DNA from: a virus
Lineage: Duplodnaviria > Heunggongvirae > Uroviricota > Caudoviricetes
IMG/VR virus record: IMGVR_UViG_2908572912_000005
Span: 1 to 25,862 of that record
Strand: one strand, 5' to 3'
Length of the DNA stretch: 25,862 nucleotides
This document shows, one piece after another, positions 4,650 to 19,410 of the stretch. Every line of letters starts with the position of its first letter. Within the stretch, counting starts at the first letter, position 1. The translations under genes and the position numbers were made by a program. Under the pieces are notes generated by a model, which was given only the letters and a program-made list of their open reading frames with translations, searched no databases and was not told the DNA's origin.

Positions 4650-6107
4650 TTAGGAGCGCCAAAAAAAACCTGAAAACAATATAATAACAGGATAAATTTC
4701 AAGGCGACCAAGAATCATAGCTATGCACATTAAATATTTTGCAATGTCATTAAGCACTCCGAATGACGATGCAGTAGCCCCAAAACCTAATCCCATATTA
4801 TTAATACATGCAGCCACTGTTGCAAATGATGTAAGAAAATCATATCCCATACCATTTAACACCAGTATAAAAAACACCGTGAAGAGAGTATAAAGAAAAA
4901 AGAAACTCCATACAGACCTCATTACACGATCTGTAACTATCTTCCCTCCTACATTTACACTTAACAACGCTCTGGGATGAGAAAGTTGATTTATCTCGTG
5001 TTTGCTTTGTTTGAAAAGTATAAGAAATCGAAGTGACTTAATTCCACCACAGGTTGAACCGATACATCCCCCAAAGAAACTTGACAACAGCAAAAACACT
5101 ATCGTGTGCGTGGGCCAGTTTGCATAATCCTGCGTAGCTAAACCATTATCAGTGAGCATGGAGCTGGCAAGAAAAAACGAATGAATAAAACTTCCATGCA
5201 AGTCATACATACCTATATGCCAGACCTGGAAAGAGGTAACAATGATCACCCCTAAGGCTATTAACAGAAAGAAACGAAGTTCAATATCTCTGATTAAAGG
5301 TTTTATCGTTTTTCTGCTAATAACAATATACCAAAGAGTGAAGTTGAAAGCCGATAGCAGGGAAAAAAAACCAGCCACCAGCTCAACCAAATAGTTATTA
5401 AAATATCCGATACTCTCGCTATGAGTTGAGAAACCACCAAGCGAAACTGTGGAAATCCCGTGACAAATAGCATCAAACAAAGACATTCCTGCAAGTCTAT
5501 AACAGACAATACAAGCAATACCTAATAAAGAATAAGTTATCCACAGTGTCCGTGACGTATCGGCCAGGCGGGGAGTGAGTTTGTCATCCTTAAATGGCCC
5601 CGGCATTTCTGACTGATAAAGCTTTGCACCACCAATACCCAATAATGGCAATACAGCAACCGCCAGAACAATAACTCCTAAACCACCTATAAAATTTAAC
5701 TGTGACCGATAGTACAAATATGCCCGAGGTAATGAACTAACATCATCAATTACAGTTGCTCCTGTTGTTGTTATTCCAGAAACCCCTTCAAACAGAGCAT
5801 CAATGAACGTTAAATTAAGTTCTGAGTCAATCCATAAAGGGAATGCACTAATAACAGAAAACAAAATCCAAAACATTACAATTATAATAAACCCATCACG
5901 GGTACGTAATTGAATGCCAGATTTCTTAGTTGTATACCACGCTCCGCCACCAATGCAAAAAAATATAACGAAAGTTATAAAGAAAACGAACAGGCTTTTT
6001 TCTTTATAAAACAATGCTACAACCATTGGTGGCAACATTGAAAGACTATAGAGCCAAACCAGGAACCCACACATATGAGTAACAACTCTTACATGAGATG
6101 TATTCAT
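4650..6107 (-). CDS. trkG: Trk-system potassium uptake protein TrkG (prophage cargo)
   Basis: Polytopic membrane protein starting MNTSHVRVVTHMCGFLVWLYSL..., matching my recollection of Rac TrkG (485 aa from the ATG at 6107; the ORF track start at 6125 is a TTG). AT-rich flanks. Confidence 0.9.
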   Translation of the reverse strand: MNTSHVRVVTHMCGFLVWLYSLSMLPPMVVALFYKEKSLFVFFITFVIFFCIGGGAWYTTKKSGIQLRTRDGFIIIVMFWILFSVISAFPLWIDSELNLTFIDALFEGVSGITTTGATVIDDVSSLPRAYLYYRSQLNFIGGLGVIVLAVAVLPLLGIGGAKLYQSEMPGPFKDDKLTPRLADTSRTLWITYSLLGIACIVCYRLAGMSLFDAICHGISTVSLGGFSTHSESIGYFNNYLVELVAGFFSLLSAFNFTLWYIVISRKTIKPLIRDIELRFFLLIALGVIIVTSFQVWHIGMYDLHGSFIHSFFLASSMLTDNGLATQDYANWPTHTIVFLLLSSFFGGCIGSTCGGIKSLRFLILFKQSKHEINQLSHPRALLSVNVGGKIVTDRVMRSVWSFFFLYTLFTVFFILVLNGMGYDFLTSFATVAACINNMGLGFGATASSFGVLNDIAKYLMCIAMILGRLEIYPVIILFSGFFWRS

Positions 6108-6244
6108 ATCTAAATATTCTTTCAATTATAACCACCTTGCTGCAATATTATGATTATACTGTATAAAATTTAACTCCTCTTAGATCTTACTTCACTGTTC
6201 CTTATGAAACAATCATCAAAATGAATCATATTGTAGTTAAGATT

Positions 6245-6709
6245 TTACTTTAAACACTGCTCGGTTATGTATTGCTGAGCACCTTCAAGTTGGGCCTGCA
6301 TCATTACCAGTCGTTCCCGGAGGGTGAAATAATCCCGTTCAGCGGTGTCTGCCAGTCGGGGGGAGGCTGCATTATCCACGCCGGAGGCGGTGGTGGCTTC
6401 ACGCACTGACTGACAGACTGCTTTGATGTGCAACCGACGACGACCAGCGGCAACATCATCACGCAGAGCATCATTTTCAGCTTTCGCATCAGCTAACTCC
6501 TTCGTGTATTTTGCATCGAGCGCAGCAACATCACGCTGACGCATCTGCATCTCAGTAATTGCCGCGTTCGCCAGCTTCAGTTCTCTGGCATTTTTGTCGC
6601 GCTGTTCTTTGTAGGCGATGGCGTTATCACGGTAATGATTAACACCCCATGACAGGCAGACGACGATGCAGATAACCAGAGCGGAGATAATCGCGGTTAC
6701 TCTGCTCAT
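6245..6709 (-). CDS. Rz: i-spanin Rz
   Basis: 154 aa with N-terminal TM segment and coiled-coil-like body; near-identical to lambda Rz as I recall it; start overlaps the endolysin stop. Confidence 0.9.
6304..6489 (-). CDS. Rz1: o-spanin Rz1 (outer-membrane lipoprotein), embedded out of frame inside Rz
   Basis: 61-aa [23 protein letters not shown]... with lipobox Cys and PPPPP tract, entirely within the Rz gene in another frame; lambda-type embedded architecture. Confidence 0.85.
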
Positions 6710-7182
6710 ACCTCAATCTCTCTGACCGTTCCGCCAGCTTCTTTGAATTTTGCAATCAGACTGTCAGCCTTATGCTCGAACTGACCATAACCAGCGCCCG
6801 GCAGTGAGGCCCATATATTGCTGCAACGGTCGATAGCCTGACGGATATCACCGCGATCAATCATCGGCAAAGCGCCACGCTCTTTAATCTGCTGCAGCGC
6901 TACAGCATCCTGACTTTCTGGAGAAAAATCTTTCAGGCCAAGTTGCTTGCGGTAGGCATCCCACCAGCGTGAAAGAAGCTGGTAACGTCCAGCGGCTGTT
7001 GATTTGAGTTTCGGATTTAGCGTGACAAGTTTGCGGGGGTGATCGGAGTAATCAGTGAACAGTTCGCCACCGACAATAACATCATAACCGTGATTTCTGG
7101 TTTTCTGCCGTCCGTTATCTGTTCCTTCTGACCATGCCACCATATCAAGGAAAGCTTTACGCTGGGAATTAAGTGTCTGCAT
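6706..7182 (-). CDS. R: Endolysin, lambda R-like lytic transglycosylase
   Basis: 158 aa; ...[33 protein letters not shown]... matches lambda R as I recall it; AAGGAG Shine-Dalgarno upstream. Confidence 0.9.
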
Positions 7183-7185
7183 TAA

Positions 7186-7527
7186 TTACTCCTTATGGGC
7201 ACCGAACTTGTTACCGATGACCCTCATTGCCGCACCACGAATAGCATCAACACCAATCAGCCCCACCCCACCACCAATGGCAACAGAAAGTGATTTAGGC
7301 CATCCGACATACTCAAGCGCGGATGCAAAGGTCAGCGTCAGAGCACCACAAAGCAGAATCTCAAGCGTTTTTCGTTTCCAGCCGCCGCCACCGCCAAAAT
7401 AGGCAATGCGCAAACCAGCCATAATAATTGACATAACCACTGCACCCAGCGGCGTATCTCCACGCCACCAACTTTGTAAGAGTTCCAGTAAGTCAGGCCA
7501 GGAATGAGGGGCATTGTGCATTTTCAT
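7186..7527 (-). CDS. S: Holin (class I, three predicted TM segments) with dual-start motif
   Basis: Position immediately upstream of the endolysin; three hydrophobic segments; N-terminus M-K-M-H with two in-frame ATGs (7527, 7521) behind a GGAGGTGA Shine-Dalgarno, reminiscent of the lambda S107/S105 dual start. The ORF track start at 7536 is a GTG. Confidence 0.75.
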   Translation of the reverse strand: MKMHNAPHSWPDLLELLQSWWRGDTPLGAVVMSIIMAGLRIAYFGGGGGWKRKTLEILLCGALTLTFASALEYVGWPKSLSVAIGGGVGLIGVDAIRGAAMRVIGNKFGAHKE

Positions 7528-7616
7528 AAGCCTCACCTCCGAGAGTTCGGATGGTGCTAAGTGTAAGATTCAGGCTCTCAGGCTTGCTAACAAGAAGTCG
7601 AGGATGTTTCCGGAGC

Positions 7617-7649
7617 CTAACAACGAAAAAGCCCCGGGACATGCCGGGG
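7617..7649 (-). terminator. Intrinsic terminator-like hairpin upstream of the holin
   Basis: 6-bp GC stem CCCCGG / CCGGGG with 6-nt loop (7632-7649), followed on the minus strand by CUUUUUCGUUGUU. Confidence 0.45.
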
Positions 7650-7744
7650 TCAGATGGAGTGCCAGATTAAGCTTCTGGCGGTATATACTCGTGTTTGATA
7701 TCGTTAAATCGCCAAAAGTAACAATTCAAACAAAGAGGATTTTT

Positions 7745-7906
7745 ATGTCTGAAAAAAACAAGCCACAAGATGAAAATAAACCTCAGCAACCCGTGGCACC
7801 AAAACCAACTCCAACACAAAGTACTACAGACTTTGCTACACGTCGTGTTTTTGTTGGAGATTCTGCCGACTCAGTCATTGAACATATAAAAAAACAGCCG
7901 AGATAA
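7745..7906 (+). CDS. Small hydrophilic hypothetical protein (53 aa), convergent with the neighbouring membrane-protein gene
   Basis: ATG at 7745 preceded by AGAGGA Shine-Dalgarno at 5-nt spacing; low-complexity Pro/Gln/Lys-rich N-terminus; 3' end overlaps the opposite-strand gene by ~30 nt. Confidence 0.35.
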   Translation: MSEKNKPQDENKPQQPVAPKPTPTQSTTDFATRRVFVGDSADSVIEHIKKQPR

Positions 7907-8444
7907 ACATCGCCGCTACCGGAGCAAGGATGGTATACATCCTTGCTTTATCGAGACTCGTGCGGATTTTCTCATTTTCCAACAGTAACTCTCTTGCTGT
8001 ATCACTCAAGTCAACAAGGCGATACCTTCGTATAAGCGGCAATAACTTATCAGGTCCTAAATATCCTGCATCAGCGAATATTTTAAAGCTCGAGGGCTCC
8101 ATATCCTTATATTTTTCATGATATAGATGATCAGGAGGGGCATTGATCAGGCCCCTAACCTTCACAGATAAACCAGTACATACCAAGTAAATGGCGCACC
8201 ATGTCCATAGTAATGTAAATGTGGTAATTCCGGCGGTGAGAAAATCGAAATTAGTTTTCTGTGTCAGCAATAAAAAAGATGAACCAATTCCAACAATCTG
8301 AATGTTCAGAAGTTTGTATCCATTCTCAACATTGGTTTTGTTAGAAAGATGAATCTCTCGTATCGTCTCTTCCCCTTGTTTTTCAAGATAATCGACGAGC
8401 TCATCATCTACTCCTAAAAAATAATCTTTAGGTAGTTCTCTCAT
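7875..8444 (-). CDS. Hypothetical membrane protein in the Q-to-holin moron position
   Basis: 189-aa ORF with strong GGAGGTGA Shine-Dalgarno; about three hydrophobic segments (two central, one C-terminal); AT-rich; flanked by terminator-like hairpins on both sides. Confidence 0.6.
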   Translation of the reverse strand: MRELPKDYFLGVDDELVDYLEKQGEETIREIHLSNKTNVENGYKLLNIQIVGIGSSFLLLTQKTNFDFLTAGITTFTLLWTWCAIYLVCTGLSVKVRGLINAPPDHLYHEKYKDMEPSSFKIFADAGYLGPDKLLPLIRRYRLVDLSDTARELLLENEKIRTSLDKARMYTILAPVAAMFISAVFLYVQ

Positions 8445-8550
8445 CTCACCTCCACATCCTGTACTGAAAACAATTTTACCAGAATGTCTCGATTCTAGGT
8501 ATTCCGCCAGGAATCGCGCTCCAGAAATGAAACATCAGGTTCGCCAGTAC

Positions 8551-8582
8551 CAGAAACAACAAAACCCGCTCAATGGCGGGTT
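8551..8582 (-). terminator. Intrinsic terminator downstream of the Q-like gene (tR'-like late-leader terminator)
   Basis: 7-bp stem AACCCGC / GCGGGTT with 6-nt loop (8563-8582), followed on the minus strand by UUGUUGUUUCUG; ~85-115 nt downstream of the Q-like stop. Confidence 0.55.
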
Positions 8583-8665
8583 CTGGTAAAGTTCATGCGC
8601 TTGGTTCGCCTCGCGATACAGCTTTGCGAAGCATACCGGAATTGAAGCAGTTTATGCGTAAAAAA

Positions 8666-9208
8666 TCAAGCTATTTTTTGAGCAAATGATTCTCGCATGG
8701 GAGTATATAGGGCATACTCAGCAACAGCCAACCAATTAGCAATTCGCTTTTCGCATGTGCTAAAACACCACTCAGGATGTGCATCATTTAGCAATTCAGC
8801 CATTTTGCGCTTAGTCATCCCCCGTCCTTCATACCGTTGCCGGAGGACACTAATCAATCCAGGATGCTCTGCCAGCACCTCACTTATGACTCTATCAATA
8901 CATAACGCCTCTGCATCAGTACAATGCGCCAGCCAGGTCTTTTGCTTGCCATTGATCATCTCTCGCAAAAACGCTTCCAGCTCAGGTTTCTCTATTCCCG
9001 CTTTTTTCATCCTGCGCAGGGCTTCATTGACGGCTGTTTTCGTCAATTTTTTGGATGCCAGCAACTGGTTAAACATATTTCCCGTCTTACCGCCGCCAAT
9101 ATACGACCAGCGCCCCCACATGCGCAGTTTTCCCTGAATCCAGACACTTTCCAGCGTGGTGAGACGAAGGTGTTCCCCGCTTTTGCCTGTATTTGTTGGG
9201 TAAATCAT
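8666..9208 (-). CDS. Putative late-gene antiterminator (Q-like)
   Basis: 180-aa ORF from the ATG at 9208 with GGAGAAAGGAAGG upstream; sits immediately upstream of a terminator and the lysis cassette; start overlaps the upstream stop in an ATGA junction. Assignment is mainly positional; the longer ORF track form begins further upstream. Confidence 0.55.
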   Translation of the reverse strand: MIYPTNTGKSGEHLRLTTLESVWIQGKLRMWGRWSYIGGGKTGNMFNQLLASKKLTKTAVNEALRRMKKAGIEKPELEAFLREMINGKQKTWLAHCTDAEALCIDRVISEVLAEHPGLISVLRQRYEGRGMTKRKMAELLNDAHPEWCFSTCEKRIANWLAVAEYALYTPMRESFAQKIA

Positions 9209-9495
9209 AAATAACCTTCCTTTCTCCAGATTTCTTGTGTGCGAAAAACACCTTCTGCATGCATCAGGCGTAATTCTTCTTTGGTGTAATCGCTGGTTTT
9301 TACCCGCCCGTCGATTAAATCGTGGCATGAGCTACAGGCAATCGCTGCCTGCATATCGTGTGGTTTTGTCGCTGTTCCGCACGTCCCCGCCAGCCTGTAA
9401 TGCGCCAGCACAGAGGTTTCGGGATTGTGATTGCAGTAGCCAGGGATTCTGATCTGGCACATCTGGCCTTTAGCCGCTTTACGTAAATTCACCAT
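9205..9495 (-). CDS. YbcO-like (DUF1364) putative nuclease with Cys-rich metal-binding motifs
   Basis: 96 aa; ...CQIRIPGYCNHNPETSVLAHYRLAGTCGTATKPHD...IACSSCHD... resembles E. coli prophage YbcO as I recall it. Confidence 0.7.
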   Translation of the reverse strand: MVNLRKAAKGQMCQIRIPGYCNHNPETSVLAHYRLAGTCGTATKPHDMQAAIACSSCHDLIDGRVKTSDYTKEELRLMHAEGVFRTQEIWRKEGYL

Positions 9496-10093
9496 TACGC
9501 AAACTCCAGTAGTTGTGCGGCCACATTTTCAACTTCCTCCTGAGAGGAGAATTTACGGAACAGAATCCAGTTCCACAGCACATTCAGAACAGATTTATAA
9601 ACCTGCTGAAACTCGGTTTCGTCCATATTCGCAAACGCGATGGATTTCGCCCTGCGCCCACGGCTACCGTCCGGATAAATATGCTCGGTGTAAAATCCGG
9701 CCTGAATGGTTACCCACTCGCGGAAAGCCTCAAACGACTTTAGCAATGCCGTATCCCGAGTTCTGCGTGTCGCAACTGTATTTAGATATTGCTCTGCGGC
9801 ATCACTCAGGGCTGGTGTGTGTTCCCGACCAACTGATTCGCACAAGTAATCCACGAAACCAGACAGCAGTTCTCGTTCGCGAGGTGTGATCGCCCCACCG
9901 ACCGGAGTCCAGTAATCGAATCCCAGTTGCAGGAGTTTGAAAAACGCTTGTGGAATGCGTAGTTACGCACACGCTTAAAGTCTGCGTGTATCCACTCACC
10001 TATTTTGATTTGATGCAGAAAATCGCAACTCTCCGGCGTCGCCGGGAGAAGTAAACCAGAAGAGGTTTGTTTGACCAGTTGTATATGCGCCAT
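9495..10093 (-). pseudogene. Nin-region phage gene split into two overlapping reading frames by a frameshift at an A5/T5 homopolymer
   Basis: The frame from the ATG at 10093 (MAHIQLVKQTSS...HKRF) stops at 9806; a second frame is open from ~9962 to 9495 (...FFKLLQLGFDYWTPVGG...LLEFA). Both read through the AAAAA run at 9939-9943; one nt of indel there would give a single ~200-aa protein. Confidence 0.5.
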
Positions 10094-10509: not shown

Positions 10510-12774
10510 TTATACGGAAACTGGCACACGAGCAGGCAATGGATAGTGAGCCCAGTTATTAGCATTTAAAGCTCTTACGCCATCAGCATAAACTTGTGTG
10601 TTTCCATCTAATGATTTTAAAGTTACTACAATAGTTACAGGTAAAGGCTCCATTAAGGCCGGTTCATTCGCTCTCAACGTTGTTTTAGCCTGAAGAGCCC
10701 AGTTACCCGAAGTAATTCCTTTATTAAATGCCTTGCGATGAATTTTTACTGGTGACCACTTTCCACCATGCTCAATTTGAGCTCTCTCATATCCAGATTG
10801 ACCGTTTTCTCCTTCCATAGGCACTTTTCCTTTTATAGTATTATTCTCAATTAAGCCAAAACTTAGCTCTACGTTCGCGCGAACATATTCACTGCCGGCA
10901 TTAGGGTTCAGTGGTGGTGCATATGCAGCAGTAATTACAATCTCACCTTTAAATTTTCCATTTTGAATAAGTGCCGATGGTATGGGATAGTTTTCCTTTC
11001 TCCACCTCATCCCAGGAACCAAGAATGTTTGGAAAATCAGAGTAAACCTATCATCACTATCATATAAGGTCTCAATAACTTCATTAGGAATTCCCGCTCC
11101 CAAATAGCGTCTTTCACTTGGCGAGTAATCAGGAGAAGATAATTGAGCGGAATGAATTAATAATGCTTTAATCAATGATGGTGAAACATTAAAGTCTGAA
11201 TTAGTGGCTATTCTCTGCCATGTATGCGCAGCTAAACTTGCCACAATTGGAGCAGCAAAACTAGTACCAAAATTAGAGCAAAGCCTATTATCTGGCCCTA
11301 CGACCTTTAAACTGCTTGCTCCTACATTCCAAGGTCTATGAACCCCACCGCCAGCATGGATTATATCTGGCTTTGGAGTAAATACAGGCCCAGGGCCACG
11401 ACGAGTATATGGTGTCGGTGTTCCAATTTCACTTAAAGCATCATTAGCTTCCATATGAGAAACTGAACCAACTGTTAGTGCTCGGACTGACTCTCCAGGA
11501 GAGGAAATTAAATCAGCACCTCCAAGCGGTTCAGGATTTGGCCATGTACGTATAGGTTCATCTACATAATTACCTGCAGCAACTACAAACAAAATACCAA
11601 ATTTATCGCTGAGCCGATCTAACTCCATCGCAAAATCACTAAACGTCTGCTCATTGCATGGTCCGCCTCCCAAAGACAAATTCCAGACTTTTATATCTGG
11701 TCTTTTATTTACAGCATCTGCTAGCCTCAGAATTAAATCTGATATATAAGATCCATTTTCATCTAAGGCACAAACATCATGGATTTTAGATTTTGTATCA
11801 GGAATCCATGGATGATTGTCATTTAAAAAATGAGCGCCTGATATCAATGAAGACACCATAGTCCCATGTTCATAACTCGTATCAGGAGGAATTACGTATG
11901 TTTCCCTACTCACTACCCAAGGAGTAATTGTTGCCGCGATGGGGCTTACCCCAGTGTCAAATACAGCAACAATGGGTAATTCTTCTGATGGTACGGGAAA
12001 GCTATTTGTTTCAATGCCAACAGAATCACTTACACTAACCGGGAATGCTGAATATTTTGGTTCTGGAATTAACGTTCTTATACCCGGGTAATCAATGAGA
12101 ATGTCTAATATATATCTATCATTTGGGGATAAATCCATTATCCTTAATAAGGGAAGACCACATTTTTGTCTAATCTCATCATATTTAACTCCGTGTTGTT
12201 CTAATATAGAAATAACGTTTTCATAGTTGTTGTAAGTTGCATCTTCACCTGTGTACTCAAATAGTCGTACAAGGATGTTTGATGATTCAAACAAACCATC
12301 AGTGCCTCCTGGAACCTTCCTATTCTCATCCCAAGGTTCAATGCGCTCAATCGCGCTTAGATTAGCCAAAATCGCTTTAATATTCCGATGTAAAATGACT
12401 GACTCTAATACGTCAAAACAGCCGGCATGAGCAGCAACCAACATTTCATCTATTTTGGCATGACCGGCATTTTGCAATCCAGCCTCTTGAGCAATTTTGT
12501 TCGGCCTATGCGTTTTGGCTATTCCCTGGTCTCTTAATTTGAAAACCAAAGTACCCAAGCTTCCAGGGTACTCTGAAAGTTTGGATTCTAAATAATGTTT
12601 ACTGGTTGTTAAATTTCTTACTAGCCCTTGTCTATATTCGGCTGTTACATCAACCAATACCTTTGCCCCACCGCCAGCGTTTACTATTGCACCCAAGTCA
12701 CTACTGGAAAAAGGGATTCTTAACATTGGGTTTGTAACTTTTGCGTTACTAAACTGTGTACCCCTTCTGCTCAT
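10510..12774 (-). CDS. Subtilisin-like serine peptidase (S8 family) with large N- and C-terminal extensions
   Basis: 754 aa; catalytic triad motifs in canonical D-H-S order: VAVFDTGV (Asp), YEHGTMVSS (His), GTSFAAPIVA (Ser), plus AAGN oxyanion-region motif. No obvious signal peptide. Start overlaps the upstream ATPase gene by 26 nt. Confidence 0.9.
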   Translation of the reverse strand: MSRRGTQFSNAKVTNPMLRIPFSSSDLGAIVNAGGGAKVLVDVTAEYRQGLVRNLTTSKHYLESKLSEYPGSLGTLVFKLRDQGIAKTHRPNKIAQEAGLQNAGHAKIDEMLVAAHAGCFDVLESVILHRNIKAILANLSAIERIEPWDENRKVPGGTDGLFESSNILVRLFEYTGEDATYNNYENVISILEQHGVKYDEIRQKCGLPLLRIMDLSPNDRYILDILIDYPGIRTLIPEPKYSAFPVSVSDSVGIETNSFPVPSEELPIVAVFDTGVSPIAATITPWVVSRETYVIPPDTSYEHGTMVSSLISGAHFLNDNHPWIPDTKSKIHDVCALDENGSYISDLILRLADAVNKRPDIKVWNLSLGGGPCNEQTFSDFAMELDRLSDKFGILFVVAAGNYVDEPIRTWPNPEPLGGADLISSPGESVRALTVGSVSHMEANDALSEIGTPTPYTRRGPGPVFTPKPDIIHAGGGVHRPWNVGASSLKVVGPDNRLCSNFGTSFAAPIVASLAAHTWQRIATNSDFNVSPSLIKALLIHSAQLSSPDYSPSERRYLGAGIPNEVIETLYDSDDRFTLIFQTFLVPGMRWRKENYPIPSALIQNGKFKGEIVITAAYAPPLNPNAGSEYVRANVELSFGLIENNTIKGKVPMEGENGQSGYERAQIEHGGKWSPVKIHRKAFNKGITSGNWALQAKTTLRANEPALMEPLPVTIVVTLKSLDGNTQVYADGVRALNANNWAHYPLPARVPVSV

Positions 12775-13903
12775 ATGCTCCTGACTCCTTCAGAATGTTT
12801 GAAATTACTCTTGATGTAAGTTTGTACAAATTAGCAAGAACTCTGATAGAAAATAATTTTTTATCTTTAGAACGTAACCAACGAATTTCATCTTCGTAAG
12901 TGCTTAAATTTACACCTTCCATAAGCGATTGAGCAAGATACAAACGCCTATACAATTTATGGTGATTTATCACACTTGCACCTTCAATAACTGCATCCCT
13001 ACGTGCATCCAAGCTCACCTGTTCAATTATTGCTCCGGATAATCCTTCCGATTTTCTTGATAAATCACTTAAATCTAGATCGCTACATATCATATTCTTT
13101 AAACGATTTTTCCAAATTAACTCTCTCTGATGTATGTCAGGCAGAGGCATTGGAATTCTGAAGCTAAATCGCCTCCAGATTGCAGGATCCAGAAGTTGCT
13201 CATGGTTAGTTGAGGCAATAATTACCGTATCCTCTGATGCCGCATCCATATTCTGCAATAGTGAAATGACAACTCGCTGAAGCTCACCTATATCTCTCTC
13301 ATTACCTCTTGCTCCAGCTAAAGCATCAAATTCGTCTAAAAAAAGCACTGATGGCCTCTGCATTACATAATCGAAAACCTGTCTAAGATTTTTGCTGGTT
13401 TGTCCCAATAAACTACTAATCAAAGTATCGCAACGCACTGTAAGAAGTGGAAAATCTAAGCGGGTAGCGATGTACTTAGATAACATAGTCTTACCTGTTC
13501 CTGGCTTTCCATACACGAGCATACGACTCGGCAATGCTGCATCAGCTTTAACAAACTCATCATAACGTTGAACATTAGTGATAAACTCTTCAACACGGGT
13601 ACTGATTGCTGCAGGCAGAAAAATCTCTGAACTGTCTAATTTAGGATAACTGACATCAACAGTGTTGAGTCGACTATCAATATCTACCGGTAATGAGCCC
13701 AGAGATATCCCACCTCCAGCCCTTTGAGCTCCTGCCAACGCCTGGGGAGCTCTAAGCAACCTTTCTCTTATCATTCTGGCTTGCTTGACCTCCCCTTTTT
13801 GTTCGAGCTTATCTGCCAGCAACCCAGCATAATTACTAGCCATCGAAGCATTTGCCTTTGTTGCACCTTCAATGATTTTTAACACTTCTGATAAATAATC
13901 CAT
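12749..13903 (-). CDS. AAA+ family ATPase
   Basis: 384 aa; Walker A GKPGTGKT, Walker B VLFLDEFDAL, sensor-1 region IIASTNHEQLLDPAIWRRF; ~130-aa N-terminal extension; GGGAG ribosome-binding site. Confidence 0.9.
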   Translation of the reverse strand: MDYLSEVLKIIEGATKANASMASNYAGLLADKLEQKGEVKQARMIRERLLRAPQALAGAQRAGGGISLGSLPVDIDSRLNTVDVSYPKLDSSEIFLPAAISTRVEEFITNVQRYDEFVKADAALPSRMLVYGKPGTGKTMLSKYIATRLDFPLLTVRCDTLISSLLGQTSKNLRQVFDYVMQRPSVLFLDEFDALAGARGNERDIGELQRVVISLLQNMDAASEDTVIIASTNHEQLLDPAIWRRFSFRIPMPLPDIHQRELIWKNRLKNMICSDLDLSDLSRKSEGLSGAIIEQVSLDARRDAVIEGASVINHHKLYRRLYLAQSLMEGVNLSTYEDEIRWLRSKDKKLFSIRVLANLYKLTSRVISNILKESGAYEQKGYTV

Positions 13904-18551: not shown

Positions 18552-18707
18552 ATGCAAAAAATCGACCTCGGCAACAACGAATCCCTGGTGTGCGGCGTGT
18601 TCCCCAACCAGGATGGAACGTTCACTGCCATGACGTATACCAAAAGCAAAACATTTAAAACCGAAACTGGTGCGCGCCGATGGTTGGAGAAGCACACAGT
18701 AAGCTAA
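18552..18707 (+). CDS. ydaF: Small protein YdaF-like (51 aa)
   Basis: ATG at 18552; length and position adjacent to sieB match Rac ydaF; 3' end overlaps the sieB 3' end convergently. Confidence 0.5.
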   Translation: MQKIDLGNNESLVCGVFPNQDGTFTAMTYTKSKTFKTETGARRWLEKHTVS

Positions 18708-19192
18708 CGATTAAAACGTCTACTCCTGCTGTTCCAGAATAACTTCATAAAATGGGAGTATTTTTCGGTGACGAGATAATAAGAACAGTTTGCGCTATCA
18801 CTCTGATGTTGAATGATGCCCTTCCGTTCTAATTTTTTCATAACCGGGTTACGGCAAGGAGAAGTGATAATAAGATTTCCTGTTTTAAGGAAATCTTTAA
18901 ATACAGCGATTTCTTTCTCAGATAAACGAAGCAATACTCGTTGCTCTGGTAGTAATGAATAATGCTTTTGAATATGTGCTCGCAATCTTGAGAAGGAAAT
19001 GGCGACCACGAAAGAAAAGGCAAAAACGATAATCTGAAAGAGCCAAGGTATTTCAGTATAAGCATTGAATGCGACAGTAAACTCTTTCGGTATCAGCCAG
19101 AGAGTGAGACCAAAAATGATAATCGTATACATAAGTCTTTCGAGTGGCTCGTTAGCAAAAAGTTTCAACAATGGAGTAAATACATCCAACAT
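18704..19192 (-). CDS. sieB: Superinfection exclusion protein SieB
   Basis: 162 aa from the ATG at 19192 (MLDVFTPLLKLFANEPLERLMYTIIIFGL...), membrane segments; matches SieB as I recall it. The longer ORF track form starts upstream at 19315. Confidence 0.85.
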   Translation of the reverse strand: MLDVFTPLLKLFANEPLERLMYTIIIFGLTLWLIPKEFTVAFNAYTEIPWLFQIIVFAFSFVVAISFSRLRAHIQKHYSLLPEQRVLLRLSEKEIAVFKDFLKTGNLIITSPCRNPVMKKLERKGIIQHQSDSANCSYYLVTEKYSHFMKLFWNSRSRRFNR

Positions 19193-19410
19193 ATCAATAA
19201 CTCTCAACTGTAAGGGTATTGAAATGTTAACACAAGCTCTCGCTGTAGGGGTATAGCCGAGACCACCGAAGCCCGGAGGTGGTGAAATAAAACCGGGCAC
19301 AACACGAAGGCGCATTTCCGATATCCATAAAGAGTCGGTCTTGTCTGTTAAATTTAAATGGTGGGAGTGCGCCTCCGGTTGTAAATAACGACATTGCTGT
19401 GTGTAGTCCT

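Follow-up and report, generated by a model that had tools for sequence, protein, structure and literature searches.

A two-gene cassette between the Q-like regulator and holin genes of a Rac-like Escherichia coli prophage pairs a predicted inner-membrane protein with a small convergent partner

Results

Two convergent genes occupy the interval between Q and the holin

The window analyzed here, a 25,862-nucleotide stretch of DNA (IMG/VR record IMGVR_UViG_2908572912_000005), is a defective Rac-like lambdoid prophage of Escherichia coli. Between its Q-like late regulator gene and its holin gene lies a cassette of about 1 kb that holds two convergent genes, one encoding a predicted inner-membrane protein of 189 residues on the minus strand and the other a hydrophilic protein of 53 residues on the plus strand (Table 1). 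Read along the minus strand, the prophage presents replication genes, an IetA/IetS pair, DUF1367, YbcO and the Q-like DUF1133 protein ahead of the cassette, followed by a lambda-S-type holin, a GH24 lysozyme, Rz/Rz1 and trkG. The 1126-bp Q–holin interval is 100% identical across many E. coli chromosomes, and RefSeq lists both of its open reading frames (ORFs) as 'hypothetical protein'. At least 80% of the region is present in 222 of 5426 complete E. coli genomes (~4%), and the exact 189-aa protein occurs on at least 1000 contigs. Phage vB_EcoS-673R7 (ON470616) is another carrier of the cassette. In lambdoid phages, the Q-to-holin interval carries Shiga toxin and other conversion genes, and morons of late operons have repeatedly proved to be exclusion or defence functions.

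Table 1. Features of the cassette and of its immediate flanks, in window coordinates
Feature	Position	Strand	Basis
Inserted cassette, ~1 kb	7542–8549		Megablast breakpoints versus cassette-less relatives in E. coli genomes; G+C 41.5% versus 47–52% in flanks
189-aa inner-membrane protein gene (predicted)	7875–8444	-	ORF; Shine-Dalgarno sequence GGAGGTGAG before ATG; PHROG 11870 (unknown function), 6e-108
53-aa gene for a hydrophilic, largely disordered protein (predicted)	7745–7906	+	AAGAGGA before ATG; dN/dS; conserved across loci; PHROG 14506 (unknown function)
-10-like hexamer TAAAAT (context CTGGTAAAAT), putative own promoter of the long gene	8473–8478	-	28 nt before long-gene ATG; conserved; no good -35
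Most conserved non-coding element (TTTGATATCGTTAAATCGCCAAAAGTAAC), candidate promoter of the small gene	7694–7722	+	Column identity; extended -10 reading TGaTATcgT at 7696–7704
Intrinsic terminator (CCCCGGCATGTCCCGGGG + CTTTTTCGTTGTT), late strand, part of cargo	7619–7649	-	Stem 7649–7632, T tail to ~7622
Hairpin GCCAGA-N7-TCTGGC between small-gene promoter candidate and downstream terminator	7661–7679		Sequences read by eye; stem varies by locus (e.g. GCCGC/GCGGC)
Intrinsic terminator (CAGAACCCGCCATTGAGCGGGTTTTG + TTGTTT), late strand, left border of cargo	8550–8585	-	Stem 8585–8560, T tail to ~8550; homology with cassette-less prophage
Candidate late promoter, pR'-like, TTGGCT-18-TATACT	8702–8731	-	Consensus scan; inside 3' end of Q-like gene
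Q-like late regulator gene (context, outside cargo)	8666–9208	-	Pfam DUF1133 4.4e-109, Phage_antitermQ 4.5e-6; PHROG 753 'anti-termination protein Q-like'; RefSeq
Lambda-type holin, Met-Lys-Met dual start; first gene after cargo	7186–7527	-	Pfam Phage_holin_3_1 2e-27; RefSeq start; sequence

The cassette has sharp borders and a deviant base composition

Otherwise homologous Rac-like prophages lack the cassette, and comparison with them defines its borders, as homology ends at ~8550 on the Q side and at ~7541, just upstream of the holin Shine-Dalgarno sequence, on the holin side. Morons are recognized (i) by their presence in one and absence from another of two syntenic phages, and the cassette-less Rac-like prophages share both flanks with the window; (ii) by a terminator of their own, here the late-strand terminator at 7649–7619, which has a counterpart in 70 of 80 distinct cassettes; and (iii) by deviant base composition, the G+C content being 38.9% for the long gene and 40.1% for the small gene versus 47.3% for Q and 49.5–52.3% for the lysis genes. 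Along with the conserved signals and the varied Q and holin neighbors described below, these findings reinforce the proposal of an earlier note on this DNA, made from its letters alone, that a moron sits in the Q–holin cargo site. The sequence comparisons indicate that positions 7542–8549 constitute a horizontally mobile, probably autonomous two-gene moron. Elements of this kind, morons at an established cargo site whose antisense layout would tie them to the phage life cycle, have precedents; uncharacterised here are the two protein families and the fact that they obligatorily pair.

The same interval carries other insertions in related strains. Insertion sequence (IS) elements of the IS150/IS3 family separate the cassette terminator region from the holin in some of them (L001 10601–11970, which is LD27-1; H26; H33), and one strain has a cut 189-aa gene with the small gene still present. 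As in Shiga toxin phages, tRNA genes are found in the Q–holin interval of some relatives, either beside the cassette (L042 and L046, downstream) or replacing it (L109, 2611–2764). As alternative cargo at this site, strain OHT76-1 has tRNA-Thr/tRNA-Gly, and other relatives have ORF6N proteins.

The long gene encodes a predicted three-helix membrane protein

The description of the long gene in the earlier note, a 189-aa ORF with a strong Shine-Dalgarno sequence and about three transmembrane (TM) segments, holds up. Hydrophobic or amphipathic helices span residues ~45–62, 69–92 and 168–188, and the AlphaFold2 (AF2) model comprises three helices at residues 14–62, 68–92 and 134–188, with a predicted local distance difference test score (pLDDT) of 81.6. 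Topology prediction, which the earlier note had proposed as a check, yields an N-in protein whose acidic N-terminal helix is cytoplasmic, followed by a TM1/TM2 hairpin, a further ~75 residues in the cytoplasm and a C-terminal TM3. The charge distribution (positive-inside) and the hairpin geometry underlie this assignment, which would leave the soluble mass almost entirely in the cytoplasm. Signal peptide, lipobox and surface-exposed domain are all absent from the protein.

TM1 is marginally hydrophobic on the Kyte-Doolittle scale and rich in Gly, Ser, Asn and Gln, and it is the best-conserved segment of the protein (IVGIGSSFLLLTQ), along with the acidic N-terminal helix. Conservation of these two segments may point to specific helix packing or pore lining in the membrane, and to a cytoplasmic interaction surface. 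With the long protein as query, an exhaustive profile search of 1.84 billion representatives retrieved no more than 102 relatives, each resembling it in size and architecture. Shortened copies of the gene are fairly common in databases, where they form clusters of 104–130 residues.

The small convergent ORF bears the marks of a protein-coding gene

The 53-aa hydrophilic ORF likewise matches its earlier description, and the overlap with the 3' end of the long gene, put at about 30 nt, measures 32 nt (7875–7906). Opposite the 3' end of the long gene, essentially all of the ~97 loci have a convergent ORF of 41–56 codons; it is retained where the long protein is 50% identical and also in Pasteurellaceae relatives at 30–40%. 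The coding sequences overlap by 20–35 nt in enterobacterial loci and abut without overlap in three Pasteurella multocida loci. The small protein follows a recurrent pattern, MS..NKP..KPQP, a Pro/Gln/Lys-rich linker and DF..R..VG(D/N)SA(D/E)..KK (the last part also written DF..RR.FVGDSA(D/E)...KK). Modeled alone with AF2, it forms a short C-terminal helix and is otherwise predicted to be disordered (predicted TM-score, pTM, 0.17).

Outside the overlap, the ratio of nonsynonymous to synonymous substitution rates (dN/dS) of the small ORF is 0.27, versus 1.2 and 1.35 in two shifted frames. All antisense frames contain stops, including the lone antisense frame with a low ratio, which is the wobble-coincident one. 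These data indicate that the small ORF is a genuine protein-coding gene on which purifying selection acts. One could object that it is an antisense RNA or a chance ORF only, as it is 53 codons long, of low complexity, predicted to encode a disordered chain and inconsistently annotated, public records placing its start so as to give 53, 71 or 100 residues. We consider this objection to be highly improbable, given an open frame with a conserved ATG and Shine-Dalgarno sequence in ~97 loci, a motif that persists where partner identity falls to 30–50%, and the frame-specific substitution pattern. We rejected the 71-aa and 100-aa starts since only the ~50-aa ATG (7745) is conserved with a Shine-Dalgarno sequence across loci; the 71-aa form starts within the conserved promoter-like element described below. 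Conservation of the upstream 'VFDIVKSPK' was also rejected as a protein signal, as it reflects a DNA-level element.

The two genes are inherited together at three phage sites

A profile search of 5.8 billion proteins with the small protein returned only such small proteins, without fusions and from the same taxa as the long protein. The two families thus have matching taxonomic ranges (Enterobacterales and Pasteurellaceae), and neither occurs with other partners or in fusions. Across 54 distinct pairs, pairwise identity of the long protein correlates with that of the small one (r = 0.78, Mantel p <= 0.001).

We found the pair at three phage sites: between Q and the holin, between tail chaperone and tape measure, and in the early-left operon. 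In all three contexts, the long gene runs in the direction of the lytic operon and the small gene runs against it. Antiterminators from four different Pfam families account for 23 of the 32 non-redundant upstream neighbors, and the genes downstream of the cassette include endolysins of four types and holins of at least six families. The copies in tail operons occupy the site of the gene 15 moron of phage HK97 (PMC3594210), and those of Pasteurella multocida prophages lie in the early-left operon, with Bro/KilA-N genes on one side and the repressor on the other. Small cargo genes flank the tail-operon cassettes, among them genes for predicted lipoproteins (N-terminal ...LLAGC) and for KilA-N/Bro/Rha-type proteins (L062 4895–5509, L083 4933–5319, L073 5288–5617), which suggests a zone of moron accumulation before the tape measure gene.

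Conserved signals accompany both genes

The earlier note had the long gene bracketed by two terminator-like hairpins. Both are terminator-like on the late strand and lie within a few bases of the positions then given, but only the downstream one can be credited to the cargo. Cassette-less prophages with the same Q share the upstream terminator (8585–8550), their homology ending right after it, which makes it most likely a tR'-type terminator that belongs to the Q module of the phage itself. The downstream terminator (7649–7619) belongs to the cargo because the holin-side homology of cassette-less prophages ends at ~7541.

Among the 80 distinct cassettes, 69 have a late-strand terminator upstream, 68–115 nt before the long gene, and the 70 downstream ones lie mostly 240–270 nt past its stop; opposite-strand terminators at the same relative positions number 16 upstream and 36 downstream. 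Read by eye, the downstream stems of several loci contain G-U pairs that hold on the late strand only. Inside the long gene, no plus-strand terminator was found. Upstream of the cassette, the candidate promoter at 8731–8702 would yield a leader of ~140 nt ending at the terminator at 8585–8550, and its placement within the Q module resembles that of lambda pR'/6S RNA.

Two conserved elements inside the cassette are candidate promoters. The hexamer TAAAAT stands 27–35 nt before the long-gene ATG in 45 of 52 distinct upstream regions (39 of them exact matches), versus 8.5 expected from shuffles. We rejected the reading of this hexamer as the Q-dependent late promoter itself, since its conservation extends to cassettes behind four different Q families and to contexts without Q. 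Ahead of the small gene, the element at 7694–7722 reaches 80–99% column identity over 45 distinct sequences, which exceeds the coding regions and makes it the best-conserved stretch of the cassette. We infer that it comprises an extended -10 promoter and a conserved leader for the small gene; at the equivalent position, Pasteurella loci have a near-consensus TTGTCA-17-TATAAT.

The stretch between the upstream terminator and TAAAAT (8450–8560 on the minus strand; also L038, L057 and L082) contains recurring motifs, namely TTTCTGG(A/T) right after the T tract, AATACC ~30 nt before TAAAAT and GACATTC(A/T)GG immediately before it. These motifs could be a regulator-binding site.

Neither protein matches a family of known function

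In agreement with the earlier note, which could assign neither protein to a family, both lack matches in Pfam, NCBIfam and PADLOC, and a profile search of PDB sequences returned nothing below E = 0.07; PHROG gives no function for either of their families. Scanned against Pfam at E <= 1, 47 distant relatives gave scattered insignificant matches (8xMP, PycTM, SLATT_3, YLATT and others; best 0.005), which we did not use. The earlier note had named homology to an antiholin as an outcome that would overturn its proposal. Among the holin and antiholin profiles of Pfam and of the PHROG lysis category, the long protein matches none, its one PHROG match being 11870. Rfam and tRNA scans of the Q–holin interval returned nothing. 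In the literature on Q–holin morons and defence hotspots, and under the RefSeq accession, we found no paper on this family.

Other genes of the prophage

The Q-like gene has 180 codons in its RefSeq form, and its longest ORF extends to 9328. The holin most likely starts at ATG 7527 (ATG-AAA-ATG after GGAGGTGAGG) rather than at GTG 7536 of the mechanical ORF list. Its Met-Lys-Met start is the S107/S105 dual-start arrangement of lambda, so the lysis cassette already has its own antiholin. This lysis cassette (4650–7527: holin, GH24 lysozyme, Rz and an embedded Rz1 at 6304–6489) appears intact and is followed directly by trkG, head and tail genes being absent there. The prophage is thus defective like the Rac prophage of K-12, yet it retains lysis genes lost from K-12.

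The window also contains a complete defence pair, IetA (AAA ATPase, 12749–13903, minus strand) and IetS (S8 peptidase, 10510–12774, minus strand), the latter matching NCBIfam IteS at E = 0 and PADLOC IetS at 1e-301. The adjoining DUF1367 gene (9495–9854, minus strand) covers profile positions 81–198 only, so that the insertion seems to have removed its 5' part. Strain LD27-1 has a full-length DUF1367, and its IetA/IetS slot holds SIR2, nucleoside triphosphate pyrophosphatase and adenosine deaminase genes instead. The slot looks like a second cargo hotspot of the same prophage. A genuine SieB homologue is encoded in the early-left region (18704–19315, minus strand; Pfam SieB 3e-31).

Discussion

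A working model for the pair

Building on the layout of the cassette, its mobility, the joint inheritance of its genes, their coding status and the conserved signals, all shown above, we propose a model in which promoter activities, a life-cycle toggle and an exclusion function are conjectured as follows. In the prophage state, the small gene would be expressed from its own conserved promoter and the membrane gene weakly from its own -10-only promoter, with the terminator at 7619–7649 ending the membrane-gene transcript ahead of the holin. During lytic growth, Q-modified polymerase would pass both terminators and strongly raise the amount of membrane protein, a part that early-left transcription would play in Pasteurella. 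Convergent transcription would make the transcript of each gene antisense to the other, and the small gene would be occluded by polymerase collision and antisense RNA, so that the product ratio flips with the life cycle. The small protein would act as a cognate modulator, tuning or neutralising the exclusion activity during the phage's own lytic cycle.

Inner-membrane morons at such sites, exemplified by HK97 gp15 and P22 SieA, are exclusion proteins, and for this reason we tentatively favor, as the role of the cassette, a prophage-borne exclusion of phages that acts at the inner membrane, is linked to the life cycle and is tuned by the cognate partner. A broader proposition, which we hold to be possible but doubtful, is that the pair represents an unrecognised, widespread two-component system of temperate phages of Enterobacterales and Pasteurellaceae. 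Its membrane protein and disordered protein would be mutually antagonistic, their ratio flipped by lytic antisense transcription, and it would serve either exclusion with self-immunity or as a membrane 'safety catch' that induction lifts.

Several observations weigh against the exclusion model. No homology links either protein to any exclusion or defence protein. PADLOC-DB v2 matched no model to either of them, while it recovers the nearby IetS with the score given above; hhalign comparisons of the 189-aa protein gave probabilities of 0.3–0.6% with P22 SieA, whose motif FxRYPxEAxxFNK is absent, and of 0.2% with lambda RexB; and Pfam SieB (PF14163) matched no cassette protein at E < 0.1. Foldseek searches of BFVD and PDB gave no match at E <= 0.001, only generic long-helix bundles (BAR domains). 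On the regulatory side, a two-hexamer scan flagged neither promoter element of the cassette, and neither has a convincing -35. TAAAAT is missing from three clades (L002/L061, L003-5 and L076), in which the upstream terminator lies 33–36 nt (L002/L061 and L003-5) or 59 nt (L076) from the ATG, and the long gene may be purely Q-dependent in the TAAAAT-less clades with a close terminator.

Obligatory pairing also faces two awkward loci, both from E. coli in IMG/VR. In L027, the small ORF is frameshifted at an A7 run (ATGTCTGAAAAAAAC) beside an intact, 100% identical 189-aa gene, and L015 has an ambiguous base (N) at the small-ORF start, in the same place as the L027 frameshift. These defects may be homopolymer (A7) sequencing errors or natural losses of the small gene. 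Moreover, a disordered protein of 50 residues would be an unusual regulator of a membrane protein, and either partner may be the effector or the modulator. Finally, life-cycle coupling may no longer operate in this prophage, since it is defective, with trkG following its lysis genes.

Alternative roles

The same layout could be read as a host-takeover module akin to toxin–antitoxin systems. The membrane protein would then be a growth-inhibiting lytic effector, causing for instance depolarisation or blocked transport or division, whose leakage is neutralised by the small protein and antisense transcription until lytic transcription lifts the catch. Convergent, overlapping genes of which the small one would be silenced by lytic read-through fit this reading, as do the polar, Gly/Ser-rich and highly conserved TM1, suited to a pore or to helix packing, the fairly common shortened copies of the long gene, and the apparent dependence of that gene on Q alone in the L002/L061 and L003-5 clades. 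We nevertheless rate it unlikely, as the conserved promoter element of the long gene and the holin-protecting terminator of most cassettes imply deliberate Q-independent expression, a strongly toxic product made early from the early-left operon of Pasteurella would harm the phage, and L027 keeps an intact long gene beside its frameshifted small ORF. The pair is also unlike a type I toxin–antitoxin system, in that its hydrophobic partner has 189 residues (type I, under ~60) and its antisense partner is protein-coding and under purifying selection, and unlike type II, in that the genes are convergent rather than in an operon, the small protein is disordered, no DNA-binding antitoxin is present and neither protein has a Pfam match.

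The cassette might instead be lysogenic-conversion cargo that aids the host independently of phages, for example in envelope stress or colonisation, with the small protein as a co-factor. Its classical moron anatomy and sites agree with this, as does the retention of a 100% identical cassette by a defective Rac-like prophage that many E. coli genomes harbor. The strict orientation with respect to lytic operons and the antisense pairing point to a tie with the phage cycle, however, and a family essentially restricted to prophages and phages, whose membrane member is predicted to have nearly all its non-membrane mass in the cytoplasm and lacks a signal peptide, a lipobox and any surface-exposed domain, makes conversion quite improbable. 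Very improbable, in our view, is an accessory role in lysis timing, in which the membrane protein, as the first late gene product, would be an antiholin or another modulator of the holin. Most copies do lie immediately upstream of a holin and downstream of a Q-controlled terminator, and a protein with three membrane helices, the first of them weakly hydrophobic, would suit such a task, but the protein resembles no holin or antiholin family of Pfam or PHROG, its relatives are associated with at least six unrelated holin families, and the holin of this prophage has a dual-start antiholin of its own. Copies of the pair in tail and early-left operons, well away from lysis genes, further argue against a lysis-specific role. 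We retain phage exclusion as the preferred, still tentative, reading of the cassette.

Significance

The cassette is common, conserved as a unit across two bacterial orders and absent from every curated family library searched, and its regulatory logic is readable. These properties make it a compact 1-kb candidate for a new prophage-encoded membrane function. If the two-component reading is true, both would be new families for the catalogues of defence, toxin–antitoxin and lysis proteins. Even if the cassette is inert, a family of ORFs of 41–56 codons, with an inconsistently annotated start, will have been documented as a genuine gene.

Comparison with known systems

Compared with other Q–holin cargo of lambdoid phages, such as stx genes, tRNAs and ORF6N/Bro genes, the cassette shares the site just after a Q-controlled terminator and differs in its content, in its own downstream terminator and in its antisense gene. 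It recalls the abortive-infection proteins of the lambda RexAB and SieB type, which are small, prophage-encoded, located in the inner membrane and dependent on a second phage product as partner or regulator; their genes, however, lie in the immunity and early-left region, are not convergent pairs and encode no protein similar to those of the cassette, as judged with RexB and Pfam SieB.

Among morons, the closest parallels are with two exclusion proteins. HK97 gene 15 is an independent transcription unit in the late operon, co-oriented with it and equipped with its own terminator, and gp15 is an inner-membrane exclusion protein (PMC3594210). Unlike the 189-aa protein, gp15 has 62 residues, is the product of a single gene without a convergent partner and shows no sequence relation; exclusion has been demonstrated for gp15 and is conjectural here. 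P22 SieA, a predicted three-TM inner-membrane exclusion protein of 162–164 residues, is encoded in the 'ant moron' of the late region, where a promoter of its own drives its expression in the lysogen (PMC10883804). The 189-aa protein resembles it in the predicted number of TM segments, in size and in moron origin, whereas sieA is oriented against the late genes, has no small partner and encodes a protein without detectable homology to ours.

The layout of the cassette agrees with that of the 'noncontiguous operon' pairs for defence and self-immunity, Tai/Ati of phi80 (PMC11364771) and Tha/Ith of 80alpha (PMC11087260), for which reciprocal expression in lysogeny and lysis was shown experimentally. 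Tai (26 kDa, soluble) and Tha (a HEPN RNase) are unrelated to the cassette proteins, and neither system has a membrane protein or a disordered partner of 50 residues. As in both systems, adjacent cognate genes lie on opposite strands, one of them embedded antisense in a phage operon beside its co-oriented partner, an arrangement known here from sequence and one that holds in the Q–holin, tail-operon and early-left contexts. If our model is true, the cassette would be a third noncontiguous operon coupling cargo to the phage life cycle, and a Gram-negative, membrane-based one.

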